Below are positions 2,402 through 62,554 of a DNA stretch of 64,000 bases, in pieces (the first letter of the stretch is position 1; each line of letters starts with the position of its first letter). This DNA comes from an uncultured Acidobacteriota bacterium. Its GTDB lineage: Bacteria; Acidobacteriota; Thermoanaerobaculia; Thermoanaerobaculales; Thermoanaerobaculaceae. Location: NCBI GenBank assembly GCA_963739225.1, contig CAVTZQ010000002.1, forward strand, positions 2,331-66,330, written 5' to 3'. The position numbers and the translations under genes were made by a program. The notes beneath the pieces are model-generated. The model did not search any database, was not told the DNA's origin, and saw only the letters and a list, made by a program, of their open reading frames with translations.

Positions 2402-4870
<2,469 letters not shown>

Positions 4871-5290
4871 GTTTTTTCGGGCTTCGCCCCATACCCCTTG
4901 CGTTCCTTCTGACTGCGTGACGGCTTCTGTTTTGCCAGGCGGGTGCGCGTCCGCTCGTCGCTTGCTCGCCCCCGCTCGCTGCGCGCCGAGACTCCCTCGA
5001 CCGCGACCCGGAAGCGCGTCCCGCGCCGGGGCCCCTCGGTGTCCGCATGAGACGGCGTCACCGACACCCCGTCCCGGTCCGCGCGCTGGGTCCCCGCGGT
5101 CTCGGGAGACATGGCCGCTGGCACCCGCATGGCGGGTTGAATACTCCCTGCCAGAATCCGTTTGGGCGGACCCTCACGGTCAAGCGTCTGCATTGGTGAG
5201 ACGGTTCAGGCAGGTCCGCGGCAAACGGGAGGGTGGTGGTGAGATCCGCCCCGCGGGCGGAAGGAGCCATGGCGCCGAAGCGTGCGGGCC
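4871..5290 (+). repeat. Copy A of dispersed GC-rich MITE-like repeat family (long form: unit 1 about 4934-5145 plus unit 2 about 5171-5289)
   Basis: Read directly. It shares long blocks with 29246-29444 and 58684-58925, and in reverse complement with 33916-34272 and 61135-61425. It starts immediately after the ahcY stop codon. Confidence 0.85.
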
Positions 5291-5457
5291 GAAGGAGTAA
5301 CGAGGGGAAGCGGGGCAAAGCCCCGGGAAGAGCGGCGGACCGCTGTTCGCCGGTCAGAGGCAACCATTGGCCGGGGAAGCGCAAACCCGGTGGTTGAACG
5401 AGCGTATCGTGTGCGTGGGCGGCACCCGCGCGGCGGCCGCCAGTTCGGGAGGCGGAG

Positions 5458-26857: not shown

Positions 26858-29242
26858 ATGGCGCGAGAGCTTGCTGCGCATGAGCTGCGGTGGCGGTGCC
26901 CTGAGGACTGGCTGCCGGCCGAGTCGACAGCCAAGATCGAGCCCTCGCAGGGGATCATCGGGCAGGCGCGCGCGGTGCGCGCCCTCGAGTTCGGCCTATC
27001 CGTGCCGTCGCTCGGCTTCAATGTCTTCGTGACCGGCCTCACGGGCACCGGCAGGATGACTGCCATCGAGCTCCACCTGCGGCCGCTGGCGGGCGATGGT
27101 GAGCCGCCCGACGACCTGCTCTTCGTCTTCAACTTCGCTCGTCCCGAGCAGCCCCGACTCCTGCGCCTTGCCGCCGGACGTGGCGTCGTCCTCCGCGACC
27201 GCCTGGAAAGGCTGCTGCGCGACATCTCCAAGGCCCTGCCGAGCATGTTCGAGGGGGAGGAGTTCCAGCAGCGTTTGGAGCTTGCCCTCGAGGACCTCAA
27301 GACCAAGCAGCAGGAACTCATCAAGGGTTTCGAGCGAAAGGTCCGGGCGGCCGGTTTCACACTCGTGCAGGTCCAGGTCGGATCGGTCACCCGGCCGGAG
27401 ATCCTACCGCTGGTGGAGGAGCGGCCGGTGACGCTCGAGAAGCTTCAGAGCCTCGCGGAGGAGGGCAAGTTCGACCGCGACAAGGCGACCGCGCTCGAGC
27501 AGGCGCACGGCAAGCTCTCCGAGGAGCTGCAGCGAGTCTTCCACGAGGTCATGGTGATGCGCGAGGAGATGGTGTCGCGCGCCGAGGAACTGCGCCGCGC
27601 CACCGTGGACCCACTGCTGAAGCAGGCGCTCTCCCAGGTCGCGCGGGCGGTCAAGGATCCCCGCGTCTCTCCGTACCTCGACGAGCTGCTGCAGGACATG
27701 TTGGAGCATCTGGAACTGTTCGGCGCCCACGACGGCGGCGAGGAGGGCGACCCGCTGCTGCGCTACCGGGTCAACGTTGTCGTGGACAACGGCAACACCA
27801 AGGGAAGGCCGATCATCATCGAGACCGAACCCTCCTACAACAACCTCTTCGGCACGATAGAGGCGAAGGTGGGGCAGAACCTGCAGTCCACCTCCGACCA
27901 CATGCGCATCCGGGCCGGGTCGCTCTTGCGCGCCAACGGGGGATTCCTGGCCGTCAACGCCTTCGACGCGGTCTCCGAGGCCGGTGTGTGGCCGGCGCTC
28001 AAGCGCGCCTTGCGCTACCGGCGCGTGGTGATCCGGCCTCGCGACATCCTGTTTGCGATCTCGGGGCAGGCGCTCCAGCCGGAGCCGGTCGAGATGGACG
28101 TCAAGGTCGTGATGATCGGGGACCGCGCCCTCTACGACCTGCTGCACGACGCCGACGAGGAGTTCCGCAAGATCTTCAAGGTGCTTGCCGACTTCGATAG
28201 CGAGATGCCCAGCGGGCGCGAGCAGGTGCAGGAGTTCCTCGCACTTATGGCCAAGATTGTGCGGGACGAGAAGCTTCCCCACATCGACCGCGGTGGGATG
28301 ACGGCCCTCGTCGAGGAGGCGGTGCGCCTGGCGCGCAACCGCAGGCGGATCTCGGCGCGGTTTTCCGACGTCGCCGACATTCTGCGCGAGGCTGCGTTCC
28401 TCGCGGGTGGCAAGCGGAAGAAGACGGTCGGAGTCGAGCACATCCACGCGGCGGTGCGGGCGCGACGCGATCGTCACTCCCTACCGGAGGAGAAGCTCAC
28501 CAAGTACATGCTCGACGATGTGCTCGTCGTGGCGACCGAAGGCGCGGTGATGGGCCAGGTCAACGGCCTCACCGTCTACGACCTGGGCTATCACGCCTTC
28601 GGGCTTCCAGGCCGGGTGACGGCGCGGGTCTCGCTCGGGCGCGAGGGCGTGATCAACATCGAGCGCGAGGCGCACATGTCCGGCAGCGTCCACGACAAGG
28701 GCGTGCTGATCCTGTCCGGGTTCCTGCGCGGGATGTTCGCGGCAGAGATGCCGTTCTCCATGACAGCCTCGATCGCGTTCGAGCAGTCGTACGGGGGCGT
28801 GGAGGGCGACAGCGCCTCCTCCACCGAGGTGTACGCGATCCTCTCCGCGCTCTCGGGGATCCCGATCAGGCAAGACCTTGGGGTGACCGGCTCGGTGGAC
28901 CAGAACGGGTGCATCCAGGCGATTGGGGGCGTCAACGAGAAGATCGAGGGGTTCTTCTCGCTGTGCGCGCAACGCGGCCTTTCGGGCACCCAGGGTGTGC
29001 TGATGCCGGAGGCAAACGTCGACGACCTGCAGCTCGACCCCGAGGTGGTGGCAGCAGTCGAGTGGGGCGGATTCCATGTCTACCCACTCTCGCGGATCGA
29101 GGAGGGGATCGAGCTGCTGATGGGCGTGCCCGCCGGCGTGCGCGGTCCCGACGGCACCTATCCGCCGGAGTCCGTCCTCGGTCGCTGCGCCGCTCGACTT
29201 GCCGAGATGGCCGAGCAGCTCCGCCACTACCGCGGGGTTTGA
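26858..29242 (+). CDS. Lon-like S16 protease of the LonC type (AAA-like domain with degenerate Walker motifs plus long helical insertion)
   Basis: ORF track, 794 aa. Walker-A-like GLTGTGRMT (Arg where Lys is expected, nt 27035-27061). Walker-B region GGFLAVNAFD lacks DE. The C-terminal Lon protease domain has GVEGDSASS (Ser) and GGVNEKIEG (Lys). Confidence 0.8.
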   Translation: MARELAAHELRWRCPEDWLPAESTAKIEPSQGIIGQARAVRALEFGLSVPSLGFNVFVTGLTGTGRMTAIELHLRPLAGDGEPPDDLLFVFNFARPEQPRLLRLAAGRGVVLRDRLERLLRDISKALPSMFEGEEFQQRLELALEDLKTKQQELIKGFERKVRAAGFTLVQVQVGSVTRPEILPLVEERPVTLEKLQSLAEEGKFDRDKATALEQAHGKLSEELQRVFHEVMVMREEMVSRAEELRRATVDPLLKQALSQVARAVKDPRVSPYLDELLQDMLEHLELFGAHDGGEEGDPLLRYRVNVVVDNGNTKGRPIIIETEPSYNNLFGTIEAKVGQNLQSTSDHMRIRAGSLLRANGGFLAVNAFDAVSEAGVWPALKRALRYRRVVIRPRDILFAISGQALQPEPVEMDVKVVMIGDRALYDLLHDADEEFRKIFKVLADFDSEMPSGREQVQEFLALMAKIVRDEKLPHIDRGGMTALVEEAVRLARNRRRISARFSDVADILREAAFLAGGKRKKTVGVEHIHAAVRARRDRHSLPEEKLTKYMLDDVLVVATEGAVMGQVNGLTVYDLGYHAFGLPGRVTARVSLGREGVINIEREAHMSGSVHDKGVLILSGFLRGMFAAEMPFSMTASIAFEQSYGGVEGDSASSTEVYAILSALSGIPIRQDLGVTGSVDQNGCIQAIGGVNEKIEGFFSLCAQRGLSGTQGVLMPEANVDDLQLDPEVVAAVEWGGFHVYPLSRIEEGIELLMGVPAGVRGPDGTYPPESVLGRCAARLAEMAEQLRHYRGV

Positions 29243-29245
29243 TTT

Positions 29246-29444
29246 GCCCCTCGGGTGAAGCGGCGCCTCGGGCCTTGCGCGTCCCCACGCGCTGCGGCCC
29301 GAGACTCCTTCGGCCACGACCCAGCAGCGCGCCTCGTCGCCGTGACCCTCGCGGTTCGGCCTGCGGCTGCCCGCGTCTCCCGGCGCCGATCCGTGCGCTG
29401 GGTCCCCGCGGCCTCCGGAGAGATTGCCGCTTCACCCGAGGGGC
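29246..29444 (+). mobile_element. Copy B of the repeat family: 199-bp MITE-like element with perfect 19-bp terminal inverted repeats
   Basis: GCCCCTCGGGTGAAGCGGC at 29246-29264 and its exact reverse complement at 29426-29444. The internal blocks are shared with copies A, D and E. It begins 4 nt after the Lon-like stop codon. Confidence 0.8.
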
Positions 29445-29974
29445 GTGTTTTCCCCACCCACCCAACACCTCGAGAGCAGGCGCCGTCGCGCTGATTCCGC
29501 CCGCTTCCCTCTCCCAGGCGAAGAGGGCCACGGTGAGGAGACGCGGCTCGCAGCTTCTTGAGGGATGGCTCCTGGCCACGTGGTACACCCCGGTAGCGGG
29601 CGGAGGACCGCTCGAATGCCGGCTGACACCAAGTGCACGACGACCGCACGGCGCCGAGGGGCCTATACTGGTTTTGTAGAGAAGGTCGGCGGGTTGAGGC
29701 ATGCGGAGGGCGGTGGATGTCTTGTGGGAGCCGCCGTATTGAGGTCACGCGGAGCCTGTGGGCGGGCTGGACCGACTGCAACTCCGCCTATCCCAGCTGA
29801 CTGCGCCGAAAGTCTGCATGCGCATGACGCAATTGGCTCGACATTTGGAACGCGCTAATGGGTCAAGGCCGCAGAGACAAACGCAGGTTTGGATGCCTTG
29901 TCGGCGGCGTTCTTAGAGTCTGTCTAATTCGCGTGAGTCGCCTTTTATAGCGCAGCGCGGTTTGGAGGGGGAAG

Positions 29975-30208
29975 ATGTACAAGAACGGTGAGGCAGCCTT
30001 AGATCGGATCCTGGAGCTTGTTGCCAAGTGTCCGAAGGAACTTCAGGAAAAATGCTTCGAGGTTCTGCTTTCCGGCTATGTGCAGCTCGAAGTCGGTGCA
30101 GTGACGCGGCATGTGCAACCACCGGGTGGCCAACCGGCGCAGCAGCCCCCGAAACAAATGCCGTCAGCTGAGTCAGCCATTCCTGCGACGGTCTCTTCCT
30201 CGATTTAA
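29975..30208 (+). CDS. Hypothetical small protein (helical N-terminus plus Pro/Gln-rich tail); may be the N-terminal part of the next ORF
   Basis: ORF track, 77 aa. GGAGGGGGAAG lies just upstream of the ATG. Lower-GC island. The next ORF is in the +1 frame and is open back to 30111, so a single-base indel could be splitting one gene. Confidence 0.45.
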   Translation: MYKNGEAALDRILELVAKCPKELQEKCFEVLLSGYVQLEVGAVTRHVQPPGGQPAQQPPKQMPSAESAIPATVSSSI

Positions 30209-30212
30209 GAAT

Positions 30213-30584
30213 ATGGCCAAACGCCTCGGGGTCGCGCTCCAGAAACTGGAAGCGCTGTTTGACTTTAGTGTGGACCCGTTTGGTTTGCATGCTGTAACGG
30301 TTCCTGGCAAGAACAGCGCGGAAAAGACCCGAAATGTCGCCCTTCTCGCTGCCTCGCGATCGTATCTTGCGACTGGTTCGTGGGTCGCGGATTGGCAAGA
30401 ACTAAAGTCGCTTTGTGTGGACCAAAACTGCTACGACAGCGCGAATCACGCGGGGAACCTCAAGAAGGGCTCTGGACTGCGGTTCAAGGCAGTTGACCCC
30501 GGGAAACCGGTGGAACTCTCTTCTGGAGGGATTAAGGAAGCAGAGAAGCTCCTTAAGACCCTTTGTGAAGGAAGTTCCGAGTGA
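30213..30584 (+). CDS. Hypothetical protein (124 aa), no family recognised
   Basis: ATG at 30213 inside ORF 30111..30584, 5 nt after the previous stop. Its stop overlaps the GTG start of the HEPN gene (GTGA at 30581-30584). Confidence 0.5.
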   Translation: MAKRLGVALQKLEALFDFSVDPFGLHAVTVPGKNSAEKTRNVALLAASRSYLATGSWVADWQELKSLCVDQNCYDSANHAGNLKKGSGLRFKAVDPGKPVELSSGGIKEAEKLLKTLCEGSSE

Positions 30585-31397
30585 TCCCGTCAAGCGAGGA
30601 CCTTGAGTCGTTCCTTGAACGGCTCAGGGAAGTGGACCGCGAGCTAGCCAAACTCAAAGGCGCGGAGGTGCGCAAAGCAGAGGTGCTCGCAACGATTAGG
30701 GCGGTGGCGAAGGATTGGTTGAGGTTCTCGGAACGGCTGTGCGCGGCGGAGACACTCCCACAGGCGAATTTAGCGGCCATTGATTCCCAGTTCGAAACAA
30801 TACTCCAAAGTACGAACGCACGCACACGATCGTCCGCCTATCGTAGCAAACTGGCACCCGTAATCGCTTCGTTCACCGACAAGATTGTGGTTCCGATCAT
30901 TCGGCATGAAGGCAGTCCGGCGCAGGTTGCATCACGCCAACTTCTGGCGGAGTTTGCTGGAAAAGTGTCCGTCGACGAGCAGTCGTACCTTGAAGAGGCG
31001 GCGCGATGTCTCGCGAGCCGGTGTAATCGTGCAGCAATCATCCTCCTTTGGGCCGCCGCCATATCTAGATTTCACTCCGCGATCGAGAAAATTGGCTTTA
31101 ACGCATATAACTTGGCTTTGAGTCAGGCCACGCAGAAGAAAGGCCATCCTTTCAACCGCGTTTCCAAGACTAACGTCTTGAGTTTGCCGGAGCTGCAGCG
31201 CGCCCGGGACTTTGATCTTCTGGTGGTTGGCATGGAGCTATGGGGGTACGATCTCCAAGTCTTTGAAGAAATGGATCGCCTTTTCTGGAATTCGTAATGG
31301 TGCCGCCCATCCAGGAATGCTTAAACCCAGCGCATTGGATGTCCAGCAGTATGCGTCCAAGGTTGGGACATATGTCTTCAGCGTCGTGCCAGCCTAA
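30581..31397 (+). pseudogene. HEPN-domain (R-x4-H) protein with N-terminal coiled coil; reading frame broken by one extra T in a T4 run (31281-31284)
   Basis: ORF 30581..31297 ends ...VFEEMDRLFWNS*. The +1 frame (ORF 31212..31397) reads ...SGIRNGAAHPGMLKPSALDVQQYASKVGTYVFSVVPA*. Removing one T gives EEMDRLSGIRNGAAHPG. R is at 31293-31295 and H at 31308-31310. An upstream helix EEAARCLASRCNRAAIILLWAAA is typical of the first HEPN helix. Confidence 0.6.
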
Positions 31398-31810
31398 GGC
31401 GACAAACCCCGCCGGCACAGGACGGGCCCAAGAACAGCGGACGCCCGTGATTCCGAAGGGTAGATAGCCAGCGGAAGGGATGCCGTGAGCAGGAAGCTGT
31501 AGCTGATCTTTTCGGCTGCGATCATTCTTCTCGCGGCGATCTTTCTTCTCTCCGGGTTCGTGTACCACTGGCCAATCGTGGTCGGGCTCAGGACAATCCC
31601 CTTCGCGTTGTCCTACGTCAGCTTCCCCGCTTCGGCGGTGAATTGCGCCTGGGCTGTCTGGCTGCTTCGTGTGGGAGAAGCCGAGGTGACTATGGCGTCG
31701 CGGGTCTGGGCAGCTACCAACCGCGTTATGCTGGCCCTTGACCAGCGCTCGACGCAGCCACTGGAGGGCGGCCTAAAGTGCTGCCGAAGAATGCGAGGTG
31801 TTCCACATGG

Positions 31811-32203
31811 ATGGGTCAGGGTCGCTCGAGTCGCAAGGCCTCCGGTAAGTCGCCGCCCAGCCAGTTACGAGGGATTCTCGACGACGCCATTCGATACTGG
31901 GAGTCACGGCGTCTCGCCTATAACCTTGTCCTCACAGTGGTGGTCGTCACCTGGGTCGCGTCGACGTGGCCGCATTTCCGTGGGGCATTCACGCTGAAGT
32001 CGGTTCTCGCACTTGTCATCCTTGCAACGCTTGCCAATGTCTGCTACTGCGCCGCCTACGTCGTGGACATTCCGATGCAGCACTCGTCCTTCTGTTTGGT
32101 GTGGCGCCGCCGGCGGTGGCTGCTTTGGGCTGTGGGGATGCTGTTCGCAGTTGCGCTCGCGAACTATTGGATTGCGGACGAGATCTATCCGTATGTCCGC
32201 TGA
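31811..32203 (+). CDS. Small integral membrane protein (3-4 TM), hypothetical
   Basis: ORF 31778..32203. Hydrophobic segments LVLTVVVVTWVAS, VLALVILATLANVCYCAAYVV and WLLWAVGMLFAVALANYW. The start (GTG 31778 or ATG 31811) is uncertain. Confidence 0.45.
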   Translation: MGQGRSSRKASGKSPPSQLRGILDDAIRYWESRRLAYNLVLTVVVVTWVASTWPHFRGAFTLKSVLALVILATLANVCYCAAYVVDIPMQHSSFCLVWRRRRWLLWAVGMLFAVALANYWIADEIYPYVR

Positions 32204-32312
32204 CGGCATAATGGTACCTAGCCGCGACCTGCAACGGACTTCTACTCGCTGGTGCTCTCGCGCGCGCTGAAAGGCGGCGCTGCACGTTGGTGTTACGAGG
32301 GGAGGGGTGAGA

Positions 32313-32731
32313 ATGCCTGAGAGCGCACTGGCGAGGAAGATGAAGCTGAAGGCGGGAGCGCGGGCGGCGGTGATCAACGCGCCGGTCGGGTACCTGAAGG
32401 AGCTTGCACCGCTGCCAGCCGGCGTCGAGCTCTCGGAGAAGCTGCAGGGAAAGTTCGACTGGATTCAGGTGTTCGTACGGACCAGCGCGTGAGCTGACAC
32501 GGCTCGTGCCGAAGTTGATCAAGGCGCTCGCAGATGAGGGCCTGCTCTGGATCTCATTCGCGAAAGGGGACCTCCGGGATGCAGACGGACCTCACGCGCG
32601 ACAAAGGGTGGGACGCACTCAAAGGCGTCGACCTCAAGTGGATCACGTTGATCTCGGTGAACGACACGTGGTCCGCGTTCGCGCTGAGGCAGTATCGAAC
32701 GGGCGAGACCAAGCAAGACGCCTGGCGCTGA
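32313..32731 (+). pseudogene. DUF3052-like protein gene broken by two single-base insertions (about 32490 and about 32569)
   Basis: Three consecutive frames read MPESALARKMKLKAGARAAVINAPVGYLKELAPLPAGVELSEKLQGKFDWIQVFVRTSA | ELTRLVPKLIKALADEGLLWISFAKG | TSGMQTDLTRDKGWDALKGVDLKWITLISVNDTWSAFALRQYR. Together they resemble DUF3052 family proteins as I recall them. Confidence 0.6.
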
Positions 32732-32856
32732 GGCCACTGCTTCGCTCGTGCTGAGCACACACGCCTTGGTGTTCTTGGGCGGGGGTATTAGATCGACGGC
32801 GCATCCGCGGGACAACGGAGAGCTTCACGCAGCGAAGAAGGCCGGCCAGTCCGGAC

Positions 32857-33555: not shown

Positions 33556-33720
33556 CGTTCACCCCCTGGACACACGAAACCGGCTGGCCACGAAAAGACG
33601 TCCCAACTACCTGAGATTGTGCGCCTGACGCCGGTGTGAATCCAGTGGAGGTGTACTCAATCACGCCGCAAACGGCATTTTGTTTTGCCACGCGGATGCG
33701 CGCTCGGCTCCTTTCATTCC

Positions 33721-34349
33721 ACTCCGTGGAGGTTTTCTTTCGCCCCGCGGGCTATGAGCGGTCGCTCGGGCTGCGCGTCGAGCGCAGCCCTCCGACCCGC
33801 CGTCGCGTGCGACCGAGCAGGCACAGGCCGGCGTGCGGACCCTCGCTGTTCCCCTCCCTCGCACGAGACGCTCGGTCGGGGCCAGCGTCTCCACCCGCCG
33901 GTCTGACCGCTCGGTGCCCGCACGCTCCGGCGCCATGGCTCCTGTCGCCCGCGGGGCGGACTTCACCACCACCCTCCCGTGCGCCGCGGACCTGCCTGGG
34001 CCGTCTCGCCAAAGCTGGCGCGTGACCGTGGGGGTTCGCCCAACCGGATCCTGGGTGGGGGGTAATCAATCCGCCCGGCGCTTGCAAGCGGCCATGCCTC
34101 CCGAGGCCGCGGGGACCCAGCGCGCGGCCCGGGACGGGGCGTCGGTGACGCGTGTCTTGCGGACACCGAGGGGCCCCGGCTCGGGACGCGCTGCTGGGTC
34201 GCGGTCGAGGGAGTCTCGGAGCGCAGCAAACGCGGGCGAGCAAGCGACGAGCGGCCGCGCACCCGCCGGGCACAACAAAGCCGTCACGCAGTGGCAAGGA
34301 AGAGGACGACCGCTCAAAGCTCGCGGGGCAACAAAGCCCTCCACGGAGT
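33721..34349. mobile_element. Copy C of the repeat family: 629-bp composite element with about 44-bp imperfect terminal inverted repeats; units 2 and 1 in reverse orientation relative to copy A
   Basis: ACTCCGTGGAGGTTTTCTTTCGCCCCGCGGGCTATGAGCGGTCG at 33721-33764 matches the reverse complement of 34307-34349 (ACTCCGTGGAGGGCTTTGTTGCCCCGCGAGCTTTGAGCGGTCG). 33916-34035 and 34066-34272 match copy A in reverse complement. Confidence 0.8.
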
Positions 34350-34419
34350 AGCAAGGAAGACACTAGCGGTTGAGTCGGAGGGCAATGGGAGCGTAGACTC
34401 CACCCTCCCTGGGAGGGGC

Positions 34420-51149: not shown

Positions 51150-51224
51150 TGGGGCGTCGGCAAATGGTAAGCCACGGGACTTTGGATCCCGTATGTGCAG
51201 GTTCGAGTCCTGCCGCCCCAGCCA
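51150..51224 (+). tRNA. tRNA-Gln (anticodon UUG), CCA encoded
   Basis: Hand-folded: acceptor TGGGGCG/CGCCCCA (U1-A72, as in E. coli tRNA-Gln), D arm GGCA/AGCC, anticodon stem CGGGA/TCCCG with loop CTTTGGA, T arm GCAGG-TTCGAGT-CCTGC, discriminator G, CCA. 75 nt. Confidence 0.9.
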
Positions 51225-55031: not shown

Positions 55032-55278
55032 CTGACTAATCCTGGGAGCGCCAGCGGAGGTGGGTCGGCTGCCCGCGCGGACGGAACGGGGGCCGGGTAG
55101 CGCCAAACGGACGACGCAACCTGCCCGGTGGAACTTCACCCGCCCTCCCGAACGCCATGCCTCTGGTGTCTTTCTGGGTGGGGGGAACCATTCCACCCCG
55201 CGGGGCAAGAGAAAACCCACGGAGTGGCAGTAAGTCCCATTGAAAAGGGAGGCTTTCGGGTCCCGAGGGCCGTTCGGC

Positions 55279-58672: not shown

Positions 58673-58682
58673 CGTTCTCTTT

Positions 58683-58704
58683 TTCACTGCCGTGAAGTTT
58701 TTTT
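58683..58704 (+). terminator. Weak intrinsic-terminator-like hairpin TTCACtgccGTGAA followed by G plus T7, at the outer end of repeat copy D
   Basis: Read directly, 11 nt after the methyltransferase stop. The stem is only 5 bp. The equivalent end of copy E (about 61395-61425) carries GAAACagcagTTTC next to an A/T run. Confidence 0.3.
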
Positions 58705-58925
58705 GCCCGCCGGGTGAAGCGCTTTTCGGGTCTTGCGCGTCCCCACGCGCTGCGGCCCGCAACTCCTCTGGCCGCGACCCAGCAGCGCGGCCCGGCCCGG
58801 GGCCCCTCGGTGTCTGCGTGAGGCAGCATCCCCGACACCCCGTCCCGGCTCCGCGCGCTGGGGACCCCGCGGCCTCCGGAGGCATGGCCGCTGGCACCCG
58901 CGGGGCGGATTGAATGCCCCGCCCG
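58684..58925 (+). repeat. Copy D of the repeat family (unit 1)
   Basis: Near-identical blocks to copy A, e.g. GGGGCCCCTCGGTGTC...GACACCCCGTCCCGG...CGCGCTGGG.ACCCCGCGGCCTCCGGAGGCATGGCCGCTGGCACCCGCGGGGCGGATTGAAT. Confidence 0.85.
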
Positions 58926-59146
58926 ATGTTCAGTGAGCGTCTGCCAAGCCTTGTGTCATCCCGAGGAGCGCAGAGCGCGACGAAGGATCCCATCGTGCCC
59001 GAGGACATCCCCAAGATAGTGGTGTCTCCGCGCATGCCTTTCCGGCAAGGCTCCCGCTCGCGTCGGCTGCAGGGGCCTATACTCCGTTCGAGGACACTCG
59101 TGGAGATCGTGGTGCTCAGGGGTTCACGTGATTCCCGGCGCGGGGC

Positions 59147-59644
59147 GTGCGGGCCGATGCGGTGGCGCTACAGGCCATGAACGACCAAGCTCTGGAACTG
59201 GCGGAATGGTCCCGCGCTGTCCGGGAATCGTCGCTCAAACGGCTCCGAACCGTTCCGACCGGGAGCGAGAACTGGCGGCCCGTCACCGACGCCATGAGCC
59301 TCGGCGATCTCGCTCATCACATTGTCGAGGCTGATGAGTGGTTATTCAGGAAACTCGAAGCGCGAGCGCTCGAACCCATCGTCGGGCACGCCGGAGCGGT
59401 GACCATCACGACTCGCGAACAGTACATGCAGCTCCTGCGAGCCCTTGAAAGAACGGGAGCTAAGCGGGCACAGTTGATCGCAGGACTTTCCGATGAGCAG
59501 TTGCGTGAGCGCGTAGACGACCGACGATTTGGCGGGAGAGTAACCATTTGGTGGATCCTCGTCCGCGGCAACATCGACCACGAGATCCACCATCGTGGCC
59601 AGATCTCAGCGTACTTGCGAATGGCGGGAATCGATGCGCCATGA
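59147..59644 (+). CDS. DinB-superfamily (DinB_2-like) metal-dependent protein
   Basis: ORF track, 165 aa. LGDLAHHIVEADEW and a C-terminal IDHEIHHRGQISAYLRMAG His triad. The start (59147 or ATG 59177) is uncertain. Confidence 0.75.
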   Translation: MRADAVALQAMNDQALELAEWSRAVRESSLKRLRTVPTGSENWRPVTDAMSLGDLAHHIVEADEWLFRKLEARALEPIVGHAGAVTITTREQYMQLLRALERTGAKRAQLIAGLSDEQLRERVDDRRFGGRVTIWWILVRGNIDHEIHHRGQISAYLRMAGIDAP

Positions 59645-59741
59645 AGAGGCTGTGGCTACCGCAACGCTGGCCGGTTTCCTTTGGGTAGCCGAATGTGCGT
59701 GAGGCGTCGCGCAGCGTACAATATGCCTCCGGAGAAGAGCC

Positions 59742-60212
59742 ATGAAAATCGTGGCAGCGATTTGTAATGTCGTTTGGTTTGGATTCACCTGCTTGGTTCT
59801 CGTGACCGACGGTTTTCCTAAGGAAGCCGGGTACATTTTTGTCTCACTGTTGCATCTGCTGACTCCGCTTCTCACCTTGGTGGTGCTTTTCCATAGCGGA
59901 GCGAGCGATGGTTGGTTAGGCCTTCGTATGAAAAGGAAGGCATTCGAGGAACAGAGGAAGATTGATAAGCCATCTTCCATGAGCACTTTTATGAAAATCG
60001 TGGCAATCATCTGTAATGTCGCCTTGTTAGGATTCATTTGCTGGGCCCTCCTAAGCCAGCCCCCTCACCCAGAGGAAGAAGGCTTCGTTGCTTTCGTAGT
60101 GGTGTCGGTGGTGACTCCGATTCTCAGCGTGGTGGTGCTTTTCCGTGGTGGGGCGAGCGATGGTTGGCCAAGCCTTCATATGAAAAGGAACGCGTTAGAG
60201 GAACCAAGGTAG
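59742..60212 (+). CDS. Small membrane protein built from two tandem 83-codon modules (2 TM each)
   Basis: ORF track, 156 aa. MKIVAAICNVVWFGFTCLVL...VVLFHSGASDGWLGLRMKRKAFEEQRKID, then MKIVAIICNVALLGFICWAL...VVLFRGGASDGWPSLHMKRNALEEPR*. The DNA units start at 59742 and 59991. The lowest-GC stretch of the window. Confidence 0.6.
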   Translation: MKIVAAICNVVWFGFTCLVLVTDGFPKEAGYIFVSLLHLLTPLLTLVVLFHSGASDGWLGLRMKRKAFEEQRKIDKPSSMSTFMKIVAIICNVALLGFICWALLSQPPHPEEEGFVAFVVVSVVTPILSVVVLFRGGASDGWPSLHMKRNALEEPR

Positions 60213-60455
60213 ATTGATGACCTTGCAAAGAAACACGACGCCTGACAAGTCGCCCGAGCGGACGCCGCCTGCACCTCGCTTCGTCATCCCGCTTGCAGTC
60301 CGTTGACGTTCTCTGTAGTCGCAAAGCGTCGAATCCGCTGGCACGGTCGTCAGCGGGGTGAGCAAGCAGGCGGGCTGCCCTCGCTCGGCGCAGTTCGGCG
60401 CCGGTCAGCCCCCGCGTTGGGCGGACACGAGCAAGACTGGAGGCGCGACCCGCTG

Positions 60456-61022
60456 GTGTCGGCAAGAGCCATCAAGACCCTGGACGTCGGGACCCGCCGG
60501 GAGTGGCGAAGGTGGCTGGGAGAGCACCACGACTCGGATTCTGAGATCTGGCTCATTTTTCACAAGCGTCACGCGGGCGTGAGGTCCCTCACTTACAACG
60601 ACGCCGTCGAGGAAGCGCTCTGCTATGGCTGGATCGACAGTGTAGTCAGACGCCTCGATGATGCCCGGTATGCACGGAAGTTCACGCCGCGGAACGCCGG
60701 CAGCAAATGGTCGAGCGCAAATCGCCGGCGGTATGCGGACCTCGAACTGCGCGGGTTGGTGGCGGCACCGGGATTGAAACGCGCGCCGACGAATCAGAGC
60801 GGCGATGCGCCACGTCCGTCCCTTTCGGAGATCCCTTCGTACATCAAGCAGGCACTGAGGGCGAATCCACGTGCCTGGAAGTGCTTCGAACAGCTGGCTC
60901 CGTCGTATCGGCGAGCCTACATTGGGTGGATTGACTCCGCCAAACGTGAGCAGACGAAGGTGCGTCGCCTTCGCGAAGCGCTGAGCCTTCTGGCGGCAGG
61001 CAAGAAACTCGGGCTAAAGTGA
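60456..61022 (+). CDS. YdeI/OmpD-associated family protein (bacteriocin-protection-type domain)
   Basis: ORF 60303..61022. EWRRWLGEHHDSDSEIWLIFHKRHAG...YNDAVEEALCYGWIDSVVRRLDDARYARKFTPRNAGSKWS matches the family pattern as I recall it. The start at GTG 60456 is a guess. Confidence 0.7.
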   Translation: MSARAIKTLDVGTRREWRRWLGEHHDSDSEIWLIFHKRHAGVRSLTYNDAVEEALCYGWIDSVVRRLDDARYARKFTPRNAGSKWSSANRRRYADLELRGLVAAPGLKRAPTNQSGDAPRPSLSEIPSYIKQALRANPRAWKCFEQLAPSYRRAYIGWIDSAKREQTKVRRLREALSLLAAGKKLGLK

Positions 61023-61134
61023 GTGCCGCCCGACAAGGCGCTGCAGCCGGCAAGCTGCGCGGGCGTTCAGGCTCCGTCTCGGCATCTTCAACTCAGCGCC
61101 TCGAATTATGGAGGCAATACGGCAACGCGGCGTT

Positions 61135-61425
61135 GGGCGGGCATTCCATCCGCCCCTCGGTTGAAGCGGGCATCTCTCGTGAAGCCGCAGGGCGATTGGT
61201 TGGGTGGGGGCATACCGCCCGGGGGGTGGCGTCACCTTTCCGCTGAAGCTCGCGGGCACCGAGCGCGGCGATTGCCGTGAGGTGTCGCGGCGGGCGGAAC
61301 CCGAACGACGAGGGGCCCCACGGTGAGCGGCGCTGCTCGGTCGCGAGCGGAAGCGTCGCGAGCGAAGCGAACGAGCGACGCCACCCACCGGGAAAAAAGA
61401 AATCTTGAAACAGCAGTTTCGAAAA
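61135..61425 (-). repeat. Copy E of the repeat family (diverged, inverted relative to copies A, B and D)
   Basis: CGCCCCTCGGTTGAAGCGGGCATCTCTC matches the reverse complement of the right end of copy B. GAGGGGCCCCACGGTGAGCGGCGCTGCTCGGTCGCGAGCGG...CGCCACCCACCGGGAAAAAAG parallels copy C and the reverse complement of the left end of copy D. Confidence 0.7.
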
Positions 61426-61549
61426 GGAACCGGGGTGTAGGGGCGGGAAACCCCTCAAGCGAGCCGGGATTTACTCCCGGCGAGCGGTGGGGGCTCGGGG
61501 GGTCGAGAGCGCCGGTCGGGTGGCTGGAGCGGCGCGGGACCCCCCGCAA

Positions 61550-62554
61550 TCATGGTTTCATGTGCTGGCGGAAGAGGTCCTTGAGCGCCAGCAGCACCTG
61601 CACGAAGCTGTGCTCCTTCAGGAACTCCTGCAGGTCGTTGCGCGACGTGCCGGCCCCCATCTTCTGCTTGGCCGCGTCGAACAGCCCGAAGAAGTCGGAG
61701 ATCGGCCTGAGCCCCAGCTTGCCGAACCGGTCGTGGTACCACTGCGACTCGCGGACCTGCTCCCACGCCCTGGCCTGCAACGACGCCACCGAGCCGTTCC
61801 ACAGGCCGTCCGCCAGCGCCGTGACCTCCTGGTAGAGAGCCGTCAGGATCACCTTGTTGTCGTTGCGCTTGAGGGCACTGTCCAGCTCCTGCGGCCCGAC
61901 CGGCCCGGCGGCCACGGCCGCGGGCACGGGTTCGGGTTCCGGCGCGGCCGCGGGCTTCTGAGGCGCGGCCTTCGGTGGCGGGGCTGGGGCGCCACCCCTG
62001 GATGCCGGGGCCGCCGGCGGCGGGGGCGGGGGGACGGCCTTGAGGGGCGGCGTCGGCGCGGCTGCGGTCTTCCCGGGTTTGGCGGGCGGAGCGGCTGGCA
62101 CCTCCTCGATGGCCGGCGCCGGGGCGCTGGCCGTCTTCTTGAGGCGGTCCTCGAATGTGACGAGGAAGCCCAGCTCGCTCTCCGAAATCGGCCTGGCGTA
62201 CGCGATGCGGGTGAGGATCGTGTCGAGCTCGAGGAAGCGGATGCGCAGCACGCTTGCGTCGGGGGCCAGCGGCAGGAAACGCTGCAGGATTTGCGGGTTC
62301 GCGGCCATGACGTCATAGAGATTGAGGAAGCCTGCGAAGTCGAGGATGTCGACGGCGTCGCTGAGGTTCCAGTTGATGCTGGCCTCTCTCGCCTGCCGCT
62401 GCGTCAGATAATCCCGGATCTCGTCGGGGATGCCGGTCGCCTCCCACTCCTTGCCGTGGATGGCGCGCAGCGACTCTCGCATGATCTTGCGGAGGCGCAG
62501 CAAGATTTCGCTGGACATCTGGCACGCGTCGAGGTTGGTGTCAAGTTTGGTCAT
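61550..62554 (-). CDS. Two-domain protein: N-terminal Swt1-like HEPN-like domain with degenerate R-x4-H motif, Pro/Ala-rich linker, unknown C-terminal domain
   Basis: ORF track, 334 aa. LRLRKIMRESLRAIHGKEWEATGIPDEIRDYL...ILDFAGFLNLYDVMAANPQILQRF...LELDTILTRIAYARPISESEL follows the Swt1-like HEPN layout as I recall it, but has TRIAYAR where RNxxAH is expected. Confidence 0.5.
   Translation of the reverse strand: MTKLDTNLDACQMSSEILLRLRKIMRESLRAIHGKEWEATGIPDEIRDYLTQRQAREASINWNLSDAVDILDFAGFLNLYDVMAANPQILQRFLPLAPDASVLRIRFLELDTILTRIAYARPISESELGFLVTFEDRLKKTASAPAPAIEEVPAAPPAKPGKTAAAPTPPLKAVPPPPPPAAPASRGGAPAPPPKAAPQKPAAAPEPEPVPAAVAAGPVGPQELDSALKRNDNKVILTALYQEVTALADGLWNGSVASLQARAWEQVRESQWYHDRFGKLGLRPISDFFGLFDAAKQKMGAGTSRNDLQEFLKEHSFVQVLLALKDLFRQHMKP

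Follow-up and report, generated by a model that had tools for sequence, protein, structure and literature searches.

The window, as we call the whole stretch of 64,000 nucleotides analysed here, contains a genuine and hitherto undescribed non-coding repeat family of Thermoanaerobaculaceae (Acidobacteriota), built on a core whose single-strand fold is maintained through compensatory change. We regard the family as probably, rather than assuredly, a non-autonomous mobile non-coding element of the MITE/REPIN/BIME-like kind, dependent on the folding of single strands. The Thermoanaerobaculaceae, hardly or not at all represented in culture, are known chiefly from metagenome-assembled genomes (MAGs). 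The repeat may occupy a few percent of the genome, and it breaks assemblies, many of the contigs fetched ending inside a copy; it also creates spurious open reading frames (ORFs) and marks the sites of strain-variable accessory genes.

Members of the family in the window and beyond

The first-pass annotation had proposed a dispersed repeat family with five copies, A to E, and BLASTN, find_repeats and nhmmer have reproduced all the relations that it claimed. Residues 4903-5289 of A match the reverse complement of 33916-34301 of C at 87% over 388 nt (E 3e-133); the corresponding values are 80% over 216 nt for A and D, 73% over 214 nt for A and B, and 77% over 226 nt for D and B. Copy E shows weaker BLAST similarity and is recognized by nhmmer with 106 bits (E 5e-31). 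The matches of a 32-nt degenerate pattern representing the shared block are, in the window, exactly A, B, C and D, and none occurred in 100 shuffles. All five copies are thus real, but the inventory is wider, comprising six full cores of ~240 nt (A, B, C1, C2, D and E), a truncated partner in A, a partial unit by E, a mini-pair at 55.1-55.2 kb and several leader relics. The earlier description in terms of short shared blocks had missed a unit of ~240 nt with a three-way junction, its usual pairing and the cargo bracketed by it. The components are:

4871..4902, + strand: left terminal repeat of copy A (T-run, GC hairpin CGGGCTTCGCCCC and CCCC), inverted match to 5296-5336
4903..5157, + strand: copy A leader (P0 hairpin, T-rich run) and type-1 core (P1/P2/P3 three-way junction)
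5158..5289, - strand: copy A pair spacer and remnant (3′ part) of the inverted type-2 partner core
5296..5336, - strand: right terminal repeat of copy A, hairpin GGGGCAAAGCCCC, inverted relative to 4871-4902
29222..29469, + strand: copy B, solitary core (nhmmer 154 bits)
29470..32801, no strand: low-GC island of variable cargo between B (+) and the weak relic leader (-), from composition
32802..32839, - strand: weak relic leader unit, tentative (nhmmer leader model, E = 0.025)
33662..33698, + strand: truncated outer leader fragment left of composite C (leader HMM)
33715..33977, + strand: copy C1, leader and type-2 core (core 33727-33977, nhmmer 139 bits)
33978..34049, no strand: spacer of tail-to-tail pair C, conserved among pairs at unrelated loci
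34050..34298, - strand: copy C2, type-1 core and leader (core 34050-34282, nhmmer 195 bits)
34315..34355, - strand: truncated outer leader fragment (type 2) right of composite C (leader HMM)
55120..55233, - strand: collapsed mini-pair (30 nt aligned across nhmmer model positions 12-229; leader match 55197-55231)
58680..58925, + strand: copy D, leader and core (nhmmer 178 bits)
58926..61136, no strand: low-GC cargo between convergent cores D and E (GC 0.60)
61137..61191, - strand: extra partial 3′ unit by copy E (nhmmer model positions 181-236)
61195..61456, - strand: copy E, diverged core (61195-61406), P0 hairpin and degenerate terminal motif GGGGTTTCCCGCCCCTACACCCC

The core of copy A scores 204 bits at 4921-5157, with a leader match at 4908-4949, and shares 92% identity with cores that L016, L056 and L032 carry at unrelated loci. 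A second block said to be shared by A and C (5171-5289 against the reverse complement of 33916-34035) is genuine, 5146-5289 being 86% complementary to 33916-34059, and nhmmer assigns 5229-5289 of the minus strand to model positions 180-239. This block is the leftover of an inverted partner core, since the near-identical strain L097 keeps the full pair, relative to which the alignment places a deletion of 246 nt in the partner core of A. Composite C, correctly described as such, consists of two inverted cores, C1 (+) and C2 (-), rather than simply of reversed core units. In the mini-pair nothing of P2 and P3 is left: the leader and the P1 5′ strand run straight into the C-rich tail, and direct reading indicates that the inverted partner opposite has collapsed in a similar way. 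The element hence decays by internal deletion, as seen in A and in the mini-pair. Copy E, read directly, has a different P0 stem (GAAAC/GTTTC).

A census with nhmmer over the window and 96 loci has yielded 198 matches (144 near full length), which collapse to 107 non-redundant cores. About 200 further copies have been found in Thermoanaerobaculaceae MAGs and in sediment and soil metagenomes, mostly at unrelated loci, and every related copy belongs either to an Acidobacteriota MAG or to a taxonomically unassigned environmental metagenome contig. The first seven loci retrieved show no relationship between the genes around their copies and those around the window copies. BLAST found no similar DNA in plasmid and phage collections, the repeat pattern gave no match in viral contigs, and a phage or plasmid origin has been rejected on the collections searched. 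Rfam at the gathering threshold returned only a tRNA-Gln from the whole window, and scans of A and C with E up to 10 gave nothing relevant (HEARO/omega RNA, 6S, group II intron and Acido-1 included). Searches of the literature on Thermoanaerobaculia repeats, on Acidobacteria MITEs and with four conserved sequence strings brought nothing relevant either.

The copies in the window had been described as all intergenic, which is true of A, C, D and E; the first ~20 nt of B overlap the end of a Lon-like ORF. Likewise, of the three copies placed 1-12 nt after a stop codon, A (terminal repeat starting 1 nt past that of SAHH) and D (leader starting 8 nt past that of a methyltransferase gene) conform, and B spans the upstream stop codon, covering the last Lon-like codons. 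The core of E lies ~145 nt and its degenerate terminal motif ~95 nt past the upstream stop codon, the distance of about 125 nt given previously falling between the two. The relic leader at 32802..32839 is located just 3′ of the flavin reductase stop codon, and pair C sits between divergent genes. Of the 70 non-redundant cores with a gene no more than 300 nt away on their 5′ side, 48 lie behind a stop codon of the same strand and 22 opposite the start of a gene (p = 0.0025), which bears out the suggested preference for gene 3′ ends. The terminator or RNA-stability role proposed along with it is not established: a single leader hairpin, a weak case, meets a lax terminator pattern; in the region of C1 its leader hairpin with the T-run is the only terminator-like match. 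Neither a sigma-70-like promoter in the pair spacers nor a terminator after the units was found, and no conserved target motif or tetranucleotide is evident at the left end, upstream of the outermost leaders.

Architecture and fold of the element

The usual element is a foldback of ~0.55-0.7 kb in which two cores of different subtype lie tail to tail, 40-75 nt apart; 37 such type-1/type-2 pairs have been found. Each core is preceded on its 5′ side by a leader of ~55 nt, made of the mini-hairpin P0 (with stems of 4-5 bp only), a T-rich run and the 5′ strand of P1 (counted here in the leader and covered by the core model too), and is followed on its 3′ side by a C-rich tail. The whole pair forms a long imperfect inverted repeat with arms only ~65-70% alike, and it is flanked on each side by one to five leader units, in arrays that alternate in subtype. 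Terminal inverted repeats of ~30 nt with a GC hairpin occur in some copies, at both ends of A and in degenerate form in E, and are missing from many, C and D included. Outside the cores the terminal motif has been located at 18 separate positions, and at each it is oriented like the adjoining core. An origin of the leader arrays from nested full insertions has been ruled out, the junctions carrying no terminal motif and no displaced 3′ core parts.

As a single strand the core folds into a three-way junction that is closed by a stem, P1, of ~20 bp and carries two hairpins, P2 and the long, interrupted P3; the sequences of the junction and of the loops are conserved. Across 105 sequences the 75 pairs of this structure are 88.1% paired, as compared with 75.5% in shuffles, and none of 500 shuffles reached the observed value. 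Compensatory cells number 935 versus 361 in shuffles, and the covariation score is 0.301 versus 0.117 in shuffles and ~0.05 with the partners slid. The check for conserved structure proposed earlier has in this way returned a shared fold.

The numbers leave practically no room for the view that the copies are fragments of a duplicated coding gene or a chance product of high G+C. Long stop-free frames do run through the copies (e.g. ORFs 4917-5300 and 33833-34351), but such frames are common in the repeat because its G+C content is high. Column variability by codon phase is 0.76, 0.84 and 0.82, without 3-nt periodicity, and 1504 of the 1540 gap runs have lengths of 1 or 2 modulo 3; together with the compensatory variation across the stems this rules out duplicated gene fragments, and the absence of the shared pattern from all 100 shuffles rules out chance similarity. 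The recurring peptide strings in the ORF translations are accordingly by-products of the repeat, as had been proposed.

The strand that folds is probably the complement of the coding strand of the upstream gene. In a minimum spanning tree A·C events outnumber G·U events by 224 to 115, and the reverse strand is the more stable one for 104 of 105 cores with RNA and DNA parameters alike; on that strand C(GNA)G triloops close 93 of 108 P0 hairpins and unpaired positions are purine-rich. Interior cells hold ~1.7% G·U, which is rarer there than A·C. The raw cells are ambiguous, with 308 G·U (two conserved T·G columns at the P1 base account for 173) versus 246 A·C, and these two conserved T·G pairs point to the forward strand, against the reverse-strand call. 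Event counts and folding energies are both confounded as strand indicators, since the forward strand is C-rich.

Turnover at orthologous sites and the bracketed cargo

The intergenic site between the SAHH and LiaF genes is filled in the window, L097 and L101 and empty in L099, L100 and L102, so that the search for empty sites recommended by the first-pass annotation has been rewarded in three relatives. These three carry no core anywhere in 51 kb, and the terminal repeat at 4871..4902 is absent from their alleles; its counterpart at 5296-5336 is kept in the filled alleles L097 and L101 and missing from the empty ones. At this site the element stands directly after the stop codon in two lineages with different subfamilies, and the type-1 core of A shares 79% identity with its L101 counterpart at this position, but 92% with cores at unrelated loci. 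The division into three filled genomes and three empty relatives means that the element is mobile or at least unstable. One old insertion followed by precise losses could in principle have produced the same pattern. No target-site duplication is definable here, the filled and empty alleles being too diverged (LiaF 65-78% identical).

Different subfamilies also occupy orthologous positions elsewhere (C1 versus L095, 61%; D versus L022, 72%; E versus L028, 54%), and C2 is 83% identical to its ortholog in L095. The element has entered intergenic sites, with a preference for positions immediately after stop codons, and has been lost from them or replaced there.

Some resident copies are conserved above their surroundings. 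The core of B is 97% identical to its ortholog in L041 and 90% in L081, as against 85% and 69%, respectively, for the Lon DNA, and the D core is 85% identical in L028, as against 74% for the methyltransferase DNA and 48% for its 4-fold sites. Judged from these alignments, the cores that surpass neighbouring coding DNA in conservation suggest that resident copies are under selection or that they have an RNA function. A purely selfish element would not need conservation above flanking coding DNA.

Convergent cores often bracket strain-specific low-GC accessory genes (toxin-antitoxin, DinB, methylase). The island at 29470..32801 has a GC content of 0.59 (0.68 for the window), its ORFs have no Pfam match and its content is unlike that of syntenic L095. 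The D-E cargo encodes a DinB-family protein, two small paralogous membrane proteins and a YdeI/OmdA-like protein, and in L028 the same two genes that flank the region enclose a different spacer of 745 nt. Cargo ORFs in general match DinB_2, ParE/Phd, DUF5131, N6_N4 methylase or DUF2442, or nothing. At the CTP-transferase locus homology of the cargo alleles stops right at the core tail end. Movement of cargo between loci was considered and set aside, as no cargo was found in two different chromosomal contexts.

Proposed mobilisation and relation to known systems

The element would be mobilised in trans by the enzyme of an unlinked gene, with the folded single strand as its recognition target, by analogy with REP/REPIN and RAYT, the ends of IS200/IS605 and integron attC sites. 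Across ~0.6 Mb of loci no transposase, RAYT, TnpB or integrase adjoins any copy, and the cognate transposase or RAYT suggested previously was not found beside or between cores. When 515 flanking ORFs were clustered, all the clusters were of housekeeping genes or of artefactual ORFs running through the repeat, and a linked transposase has been rejected for these loci; the recurrent neighbours of the copies are housekeeping genes, and the cargo consists of toxin-antitoxin, DinB, methylase and unknown genes. Secondary effects on the host are likely, given the conservation of some resident copies above that of the genes next to them. Candidates would be 3′-end structures, or recombination hot spots that collect accessory genes between convergent cores.

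It is unlikely, though worth keeping in view, that the repeat is a cis-acting structured RNA of 3′ UTRs, its core transcribed by read-through along with the upstream gene and acting as a terminator, exonuclease block or insulator that is kept by host selection, with any mobility being a thing of the past. Copies starting 0-12 nt after stop codons at several independent loci would fit such a role, as would the orientation bias of 48 to 22, the strong covariation, the short leader hairpin followed by a T-run (matching a terminator pattern in one instance) and the orthologous cores that exceed adjacent coding DNA and 4-fold degenerate sites in conservation. Against it, five indicators favour the opposite strand as the folding one, G·U pairs are rare (~1.7% of interior cells, below A·C), P0 stems have just 4-5 bp, 22 of the 70 cores stand opposite gene starts and the genes on either side of pair C diverge; moreover, close relatives lack the element at the same gene and subfamilies replace one another at one site. 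We find it very doubtful that the cores are instead independently transcribed small or medium RNAs, read from the reverse strand outward from the pair centre and acting as regulators or guide-like partners of an unlinked protein. The better folding of the reverse strand in 104 of 105 copies and its purine-rich unpaired positions speak for such genes, together with G·U-equivalent changes tolerated twice as often on that strand and a closed three-way junction whose own sequence and loops are conserved, yet the spacers have no sigma-70-like promoter and the units no terminator behind them, no Rfam family matches even at E = 10, no protein gene is linked and many copies are truncated, collapsed or rearranged.

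A further, quite unlikely reading holds that the cores are dedicated recombination or docking sites, or guide-like RNA genes, serving a host enzyme that is not linked to them and that would recognise each in the form of a folded single strand, and that convergent pairs are integron-like landing pads. Cassettes (toxin-antitoxin, DinB, restriction-modification methylase, phage-derived) would then be captured and swapped at dispersed pairs. This would explain why the cargo alleles at one locus all break at the core tail end, why the G+C content of the cargo is always below that of its surroundings and why resident cores are more conserved than neighbouring genes.

The non-autonomous mobile element that we favour joins features that are usually separate, namely insertion polymorphism of the MITE kind and the doublets and mosaicism of REPINs and BIMEs, and adds to them a large three-way junction held by hundreds of compensatory changes and, in some copies, conservation above adjacent coding DNA. 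From this combination it can be argued that some machinery works on the fold in its entirety, be it a transposase or recombinase specific for single strands or a partner that binds RNA. Such putative fold-recognising machinery, if found, would represent a new mobilisation system or a new class of structured RNA.

The attC site of integrons is 57-141 nt long, with R″/L″-L′/R′ arms and a GTTRRRY core, and forms direct arrays next to intI and attI. Like attC and pdif/Xer sites, the repeats are imperfect palindromes that would act as folded single strands, their fold is kept better than their sequence and they bracket variable low-GC cassettes rich in toxin-antitoxin genes; as with attC, homology of cargo alleles ends at the core tail end (CTP-transferase locus). 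In contrast to integrons, however, the family has no integrase gene, attI, cassette array or GTTRRRY core site, its units of ~240 nt are convergent instead of direct and scattered among housekeeping genes, and no cassette recurs at two different loci. With the palindrome-associated elements derived from IS200/IS605 and with omega or right-end RNAs (HEARO, TnpB guides) it shares a multi-copy, structured, non-coding nature, a dispensable protein gene and a putative dependence on hairpins in single-stranded DNA. It differs from them in having no Rfam match, no TnpA, TnpB or IscB nearby and no conserved target tetranucleotide at the left end, and in possessing terminal and long inverted repeats, which are absent from IS200/IS605.

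The resemblance to MITEs and mobile insertion cassettes, as described for Correia/NEMIS of Neisseria, ERIC of enterobacteria and MIC231 of Bacillus cereus, includes the small, non-coding and dispersed unit, presence or absence at orthologous sites (SAHH-LiaF), the foldback shape, terminal inverted repeats at least in copy A, and variants with passenger genes and without a transposase between the two ends. Unlike MITEs, the family has no target-site duplication or matching autonomous insertion sequence identified in ~0.6 Mb of loci, its terminal repeat is missing from many copies and some resident copies outdo neighbouring genes in conservation. Arms that are ~65-70% alike and each keep their own fold by compensatory changes are, to our knowledge, unusual for MITEs.

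A REP unit is an imperfect palindrome of 20-40 nt with a GTAG or CGTC tag, and the RAYT (TnpA-REP) gene is flanked by the repeats. The family unit is far larger (~240 nt, three helices and 75 pairs, in a doublet of ~0.55-0.7 kb), has no sequence similarity to the REP/BIME/REPIN elements of Proteobacteria and has leader units in direct tandem arrays; neither a RAYT gene nor a GTAG/CGTC tag at the hairpins was seen in the loci examined (~0.6 Mb). Still, the Correia/REP/BIME-like character proposed at the outset is supported by the non-coding, high-copy, dispersed, mosaic and strongly structured nature of the repeat. In common with the REP/BIME/REPIN elements it is extragenic, with a conserved single-strand fold, two unit subtypes combined in mosaics with accessory motifs and an inverted doublet, the replicating form in REPINs, and it shares with them a bias towards positions after gene 3′ ends and the absence of a transposase from within the element.

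Copies of the repeat in the window and in other genomes

All relations among the five copies claimed in the first-pass annotation were reproduced by BLASTN of the five intervals against the window (68% G+C) and by a repeat search: A (4903-5289) is 87% identical to the reverse complement of C (33916-34301) over 388 nt, A and D are 80% identical over 216 nt, A and B 73% over 214 nt and B and D 77-78%, while the matches of E are weaker. A 32-nt degenerate pattern of the common block matches A, B, C and D and occurs in 0 of 100 dinucleotide-preserving shuffles. A profile of the core (the repeat unit of about 240 nt) was constructed from the copies and run over the window.

Profile matches in the window
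4921-5157, +, core A, 204 bits
5229-5289, -, partial unit
29235-29469, +, core B, 154 bits
33727-33977, +, core C1, 139 bits
34050-34282, -, core C2, 195 bits
58696-58925, +, core D, 178 bits
61137-61191, -, partial unit
61195-61406, -, core E, 106 bits

Copy C is indeed a composite with reversed units, as noticed earlier, and can now be described as two inverted cores; the second block shared by A and C is likewise real, being in A a part of an inverted partner. The copies are flanked by unrelated housekeeping genes encoding adenosylhomocysteinase (SAHH), a LiaF-like protein, a LonB-like protease, flavin reductase-rubredoxin, Ffh, a methyltransferase and a DinB-family protein. The sole Rfam or ARAGORN match in the window, tRNA-Gln (anticodon TTG, 51150-51224), has no relation to the repeat.

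When one genome per species was scanned for the exact pattern, seven loci emerged, each from a Thermoanaerobaculaceae or Acidobacteriota MAG; a scan of this type in JGI metagenomes added 89. With nhmmer there were then 198 matches, of which 144 are nearly full-length, and 107 remain as non-redundant cores (<93% identity). The genes beside the first seven loci show no homology to those of the window, and the copies therefore occupy different genomic sites. No similar sequence was found in Rfam, viral contigs, plasmid or phage collections, nor did a literature search including the conserved strings themselves reveal anything similar. The repeat family is real, large and non-coding, has a conserved fold and occupies many unrelated sites.

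Conserved fold and the candidate folding strand

The alignment of 105 non-redundant cores was folded and a 75-pair structure was scored, which confirmed a conserved structure: a closed three-way junction of three helices. P1, the closing stem of about 20 bp, is formed by the 5′ strand TTGCCNNGCGGGTGCGCGGCC and the 3′ strand GGCCGCTNNCACCCGCNNGGCGG; P2 is a hairpin in which pairing is kept though the sequence is wholly different between subfamilies (e.g. GGGCTGCGC/GCGCAGCCC, GGGCTGGGC/GCCCAGCCC, CGCTGCGGCC/GGCCGCAGCG); P3 is a long, interrupted hairpin whose apical insertion is variable. Pairing and covariation exceed both controls, and therefore the core fold is under selection. The change per site on a minimum spanning tree is 0.085 in paired columns versus 0.150 in unpaired ones.

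Support for the fold (observed; shuffled; partners slid)
Cells paired: 88.1%; 75.5% (observed value reached in 0 of 500 shuffles); 38-46%
Cells changed on both sides: 935; 361; 120-155
Covariation score: 0.301; 0.117; about 0.05

A coding origin of the repeat was rejected: variability over the three codon phases is 0.76, 0.84 and 0.82, and gaps hardly ever run in multiples of three. The recurring peptide strings, already taken for by-products of the repeat, are together with the stop-free frames side effects of the high G+C.

Each core begins with a leader of about 55 nt, consisting of the mini-hairpin P0 (TCAC-TGC-GTGA, CCAC-TCC-GTGG or GCGC-TTC-GCGC; GAAAC/GTTTC in copy E), a T-rich run and the 5′ strand of P1, the last also covered by the core model; a C-rich tail lies 3′ of the core.

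Five indicators lean towards the complement of the forward strand (the gene-to-core direction) as the folding strand. Folding the alignment yields an energy of -207 for the reverse and -193 for the forward strand, single-sequence folds of the reverse strand are more stable in 104 of 105 cores with RNA and DNA parameters alike, and changes from Watson-Crick to A·C pairs (G·U or G·T on the reverse strand) outnumber those to G·U by 224 to 115 on the minimum spanning tree, although the C-richness of the forward strand alone favours the complement in energy and A·C counts. On the reverse strand unpaired positions are purine-rich, 93 of 108 P0 loops take the form of C(GNA)G triloops and the terminal hairpin loops are GAA, GGA, GCA or AAA. 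G-A and C-T substitution counts are equal in paired columns. Two conserved T·G pairs at the P1 base, which exist on the forward strand only, point the other way. C(GNA)G is a classic, very stable DNA mini-hairpin motif, and the triloops point towards a single-stranded DNA form, as a lead and not as a test. Sigma-70-like promoters were looked for without success, and just one leader hairpin is terminator-like, and weakly so.

Pairs, leader arrays and insertion sites

The commonest arrangement (n=37) is a tail-to-tail pair with cores 40-75 nt apart, in which the partner core regularly has a lower model score and belongs to a different subtype, named type 2. The whole pair C is 80-81% identical over 570-600 nt to copies at two loci from other genomes (L001, L002) whose flanking genes lack homology to those of the window, which argues that the pair propagates as a unit. 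A collapsed mini-pair at 55120-55233, in which the leader and P1 5′ strand run straight into the C-rich tail and P2 and P3 are missing, is the expected product of deletion between the nearly identical CCGCGGG motifs of the two P1 strands; it may be the footprint of a deletion or, alternatively, an ancestral minimal form.

On the outer side of each core in a pair stand one to five tandem leader units, inverted between the sides and often alternating between types 1 and 2; the truncated ones all stop exactly at the end of the P1 5′ strand. Nested insertion as their source was rejected, and we read the arrays as local tandem duplication, because the junctions carry no terminal motif and displaced 3′ parts are absent. 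Alternating arrays of about 55-nt units lie in L056 (10744-10953), L084 (381-610 and 1087-1303) and L008 (11177-11378), where some double units of about 110 nt are exactly duplicated.

Some copies carry terminal inverted repeats of about 30 nt with a GC hairpin (in copy A at 4871-4902 and, inverted, 5296-5336); they are absent from C and D. This motif recurs at 18 separate positions, each lying 23-152 nt beyond a core and sharing its orientation, often directly behind a stop codon. The suggested preference for gene 3′ ends is supported by the 70 non-redundant cores whose 5′ side has a gene no more than 300 nt away: 48 lie behind a same-strand stop codon versus 22 facing a gene start (p = 0.0025).

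Filled and empty alleles were found at the site of copy A, between the SAHH and LiaF-like genes, in syntenic loci reached via homologues of the LiaF-like protein.

SAHH-LiaF loci (LiaF identity to the window; intergenic length; element)
Window: 587 nt; type-1 core and partner remnant
L097: identical protein; >600 nt, contig breaking off within the pair; complete type-2 core and spacer, type-1 core truncated at the contig end
L101: 69%; 952 nt; full pair
L099: 78%; 139 nt; absent
L100: 72%; 227 nt; absent
L102: 65%; 204 nt; absent

The loci L099, L100 and L102 have no core within 51 kb of sequence. The right-hand limit of the insertion is set by a non-coding motif conserved in all six loci. This motif (TTCGCCGGTCAG...TTGGCCG...CGCAAAC; window 5340-5400), some 60-110 nt upstream of the LiaF-like gene, is present in the relatives L099-L102 with or without the repeat and probably serves the liaF/histidine kinase/LytTR operon as promoter or operator. 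The SAHH ORF (3164-4870) encodes 568 aa from the first possible start versus 444-453 aa in called orthologues, and translation probably begins about 370 nt downstream of 3164.

Compared with L097, the window has a 246-nt deletion inside the partner core. Its type-1 core is 79% identical to the same-site core in L101 versus 92% to cores at unrelated loci, which favours replacement, or a separate insertion behind the same stop codon, over simple inheritance.

Variable cargo, turnover and relation to known elements

Convergent cores 0.7-4.2 kb apart enclose DNA (cargo) that at nine non-redundant loci always has a lower G+C than the surrounding locus, in most cases 0.58-0.62 versus 0.64-0.70 (0.67 versus 0.71 in L045).

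Cargo in the window
29470-32801, between B and a relic leader, G+C 0.59 versus 0.68
58926-61136, between D and E, G+C 0.60

The enclosed genes are accessory (DinB_2, ParE/Phd, DUF5131, N6/N4 DNA methylase, DUF2442, unknowns), with no transposase among them. The spacer of the CTP-transferase locus measures 316, 762, 1744 or 4250 nt depending on the strain, and at least five allelic classes there have the core in common to the tail end (…GCCCACCCCCCGCAG) and diverge immediately beyond. At the RlmN locus the cargo of L007 differs from that of L034, and the distance from the methyltransferase gene to the hypothetical gene at 61550-62554 is 745 nt in L028 versus 2.2 kb in the window. No cargo was found at two different loci, and the data thus show a hot spot of variation, with convergent cores associated with variable low-GC cargo, rather than cassette mobility.

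The island 29470-32801 lies between the Lon-like and flavin reductase genes, and none of ten ORFs tested has a Pfam match; at this locus the DNA of L095 is largely different except for a segment of about 230 nt, repeated twice in L095. Two tandem paralogous small genes at 59742-60465 (start MKIVAAICNV...) probably encode membrane proteins; the one ORF tested (59742-60212) has no Pfam match, and at the DNA level 59742-59801 matches 59991-60050, and 59821-59966 matches 60073-60218, with 77-78% identity. Immediately 5′ of the DinB-family gene lies a 116-nt segment (window 59053-59168) that occurs twice in L022 (2228-2343 and 831-946, direct orientation, 80% identity), once at either end of the DinB/small-gene cargo. 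This location, and the 92% identity of that cargo between L022 and the window versus 83% in the flanking methyltransferase region, hint at a recent exchange.

Orthologous positions undergo subfamily replacement and internal deletions, different subfamilies being found for C1 versus L095 (61%), D versus L022 (72%) and E versus L028 (54%). Where the same subfamily is retained, the core is more conserved than the adjoining DNA.

Core and neighbouring DNA identity
B versus L041: core 97%; Lon gene DNA 85%; 4-fold sites 56%
B versus L081: core 90%; Lon gene DNA 69%; 4-fold sites 61%
D versus L028: core 85%; methyltransferase gene DNA 74%; 4-fold sites 48%
B versus L095: core 84%; 4-fold sites 73% (Lon), 61% (flavin reductase)
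C2 versus L095: core 83%; 4-fold sites 73% (Lon), 61% (flavin reductase)

Such conservation may reflect selection acting on the resident copy, or else conversion towards master copies that are themselves under strong constraint. In copy B, P2 is block-replaced relative to L095, which indicates recombination between copies.

The element would be mobilised in trans by an unlinked enzyme reading the folded single strand, and host-level roles are possible. The original reading as a Correia/REP/BIME-like repeat holds in its essentials (non-coding, dispersed, structured, with a 3′-end bias), and the terminator or RNA-stability role suggested with it is hypothetical. The likeness to integron attC sites may be taken as a functional analogy only. 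The element falls outside the REP size definition, and neither a target duplication nor a cognate transposase, as expected for a MITE, was found at the loci covered. REP/BIME/REPIN and MITEs or mobile insertion cassettes are the closest known kinds, and several working features are alike.
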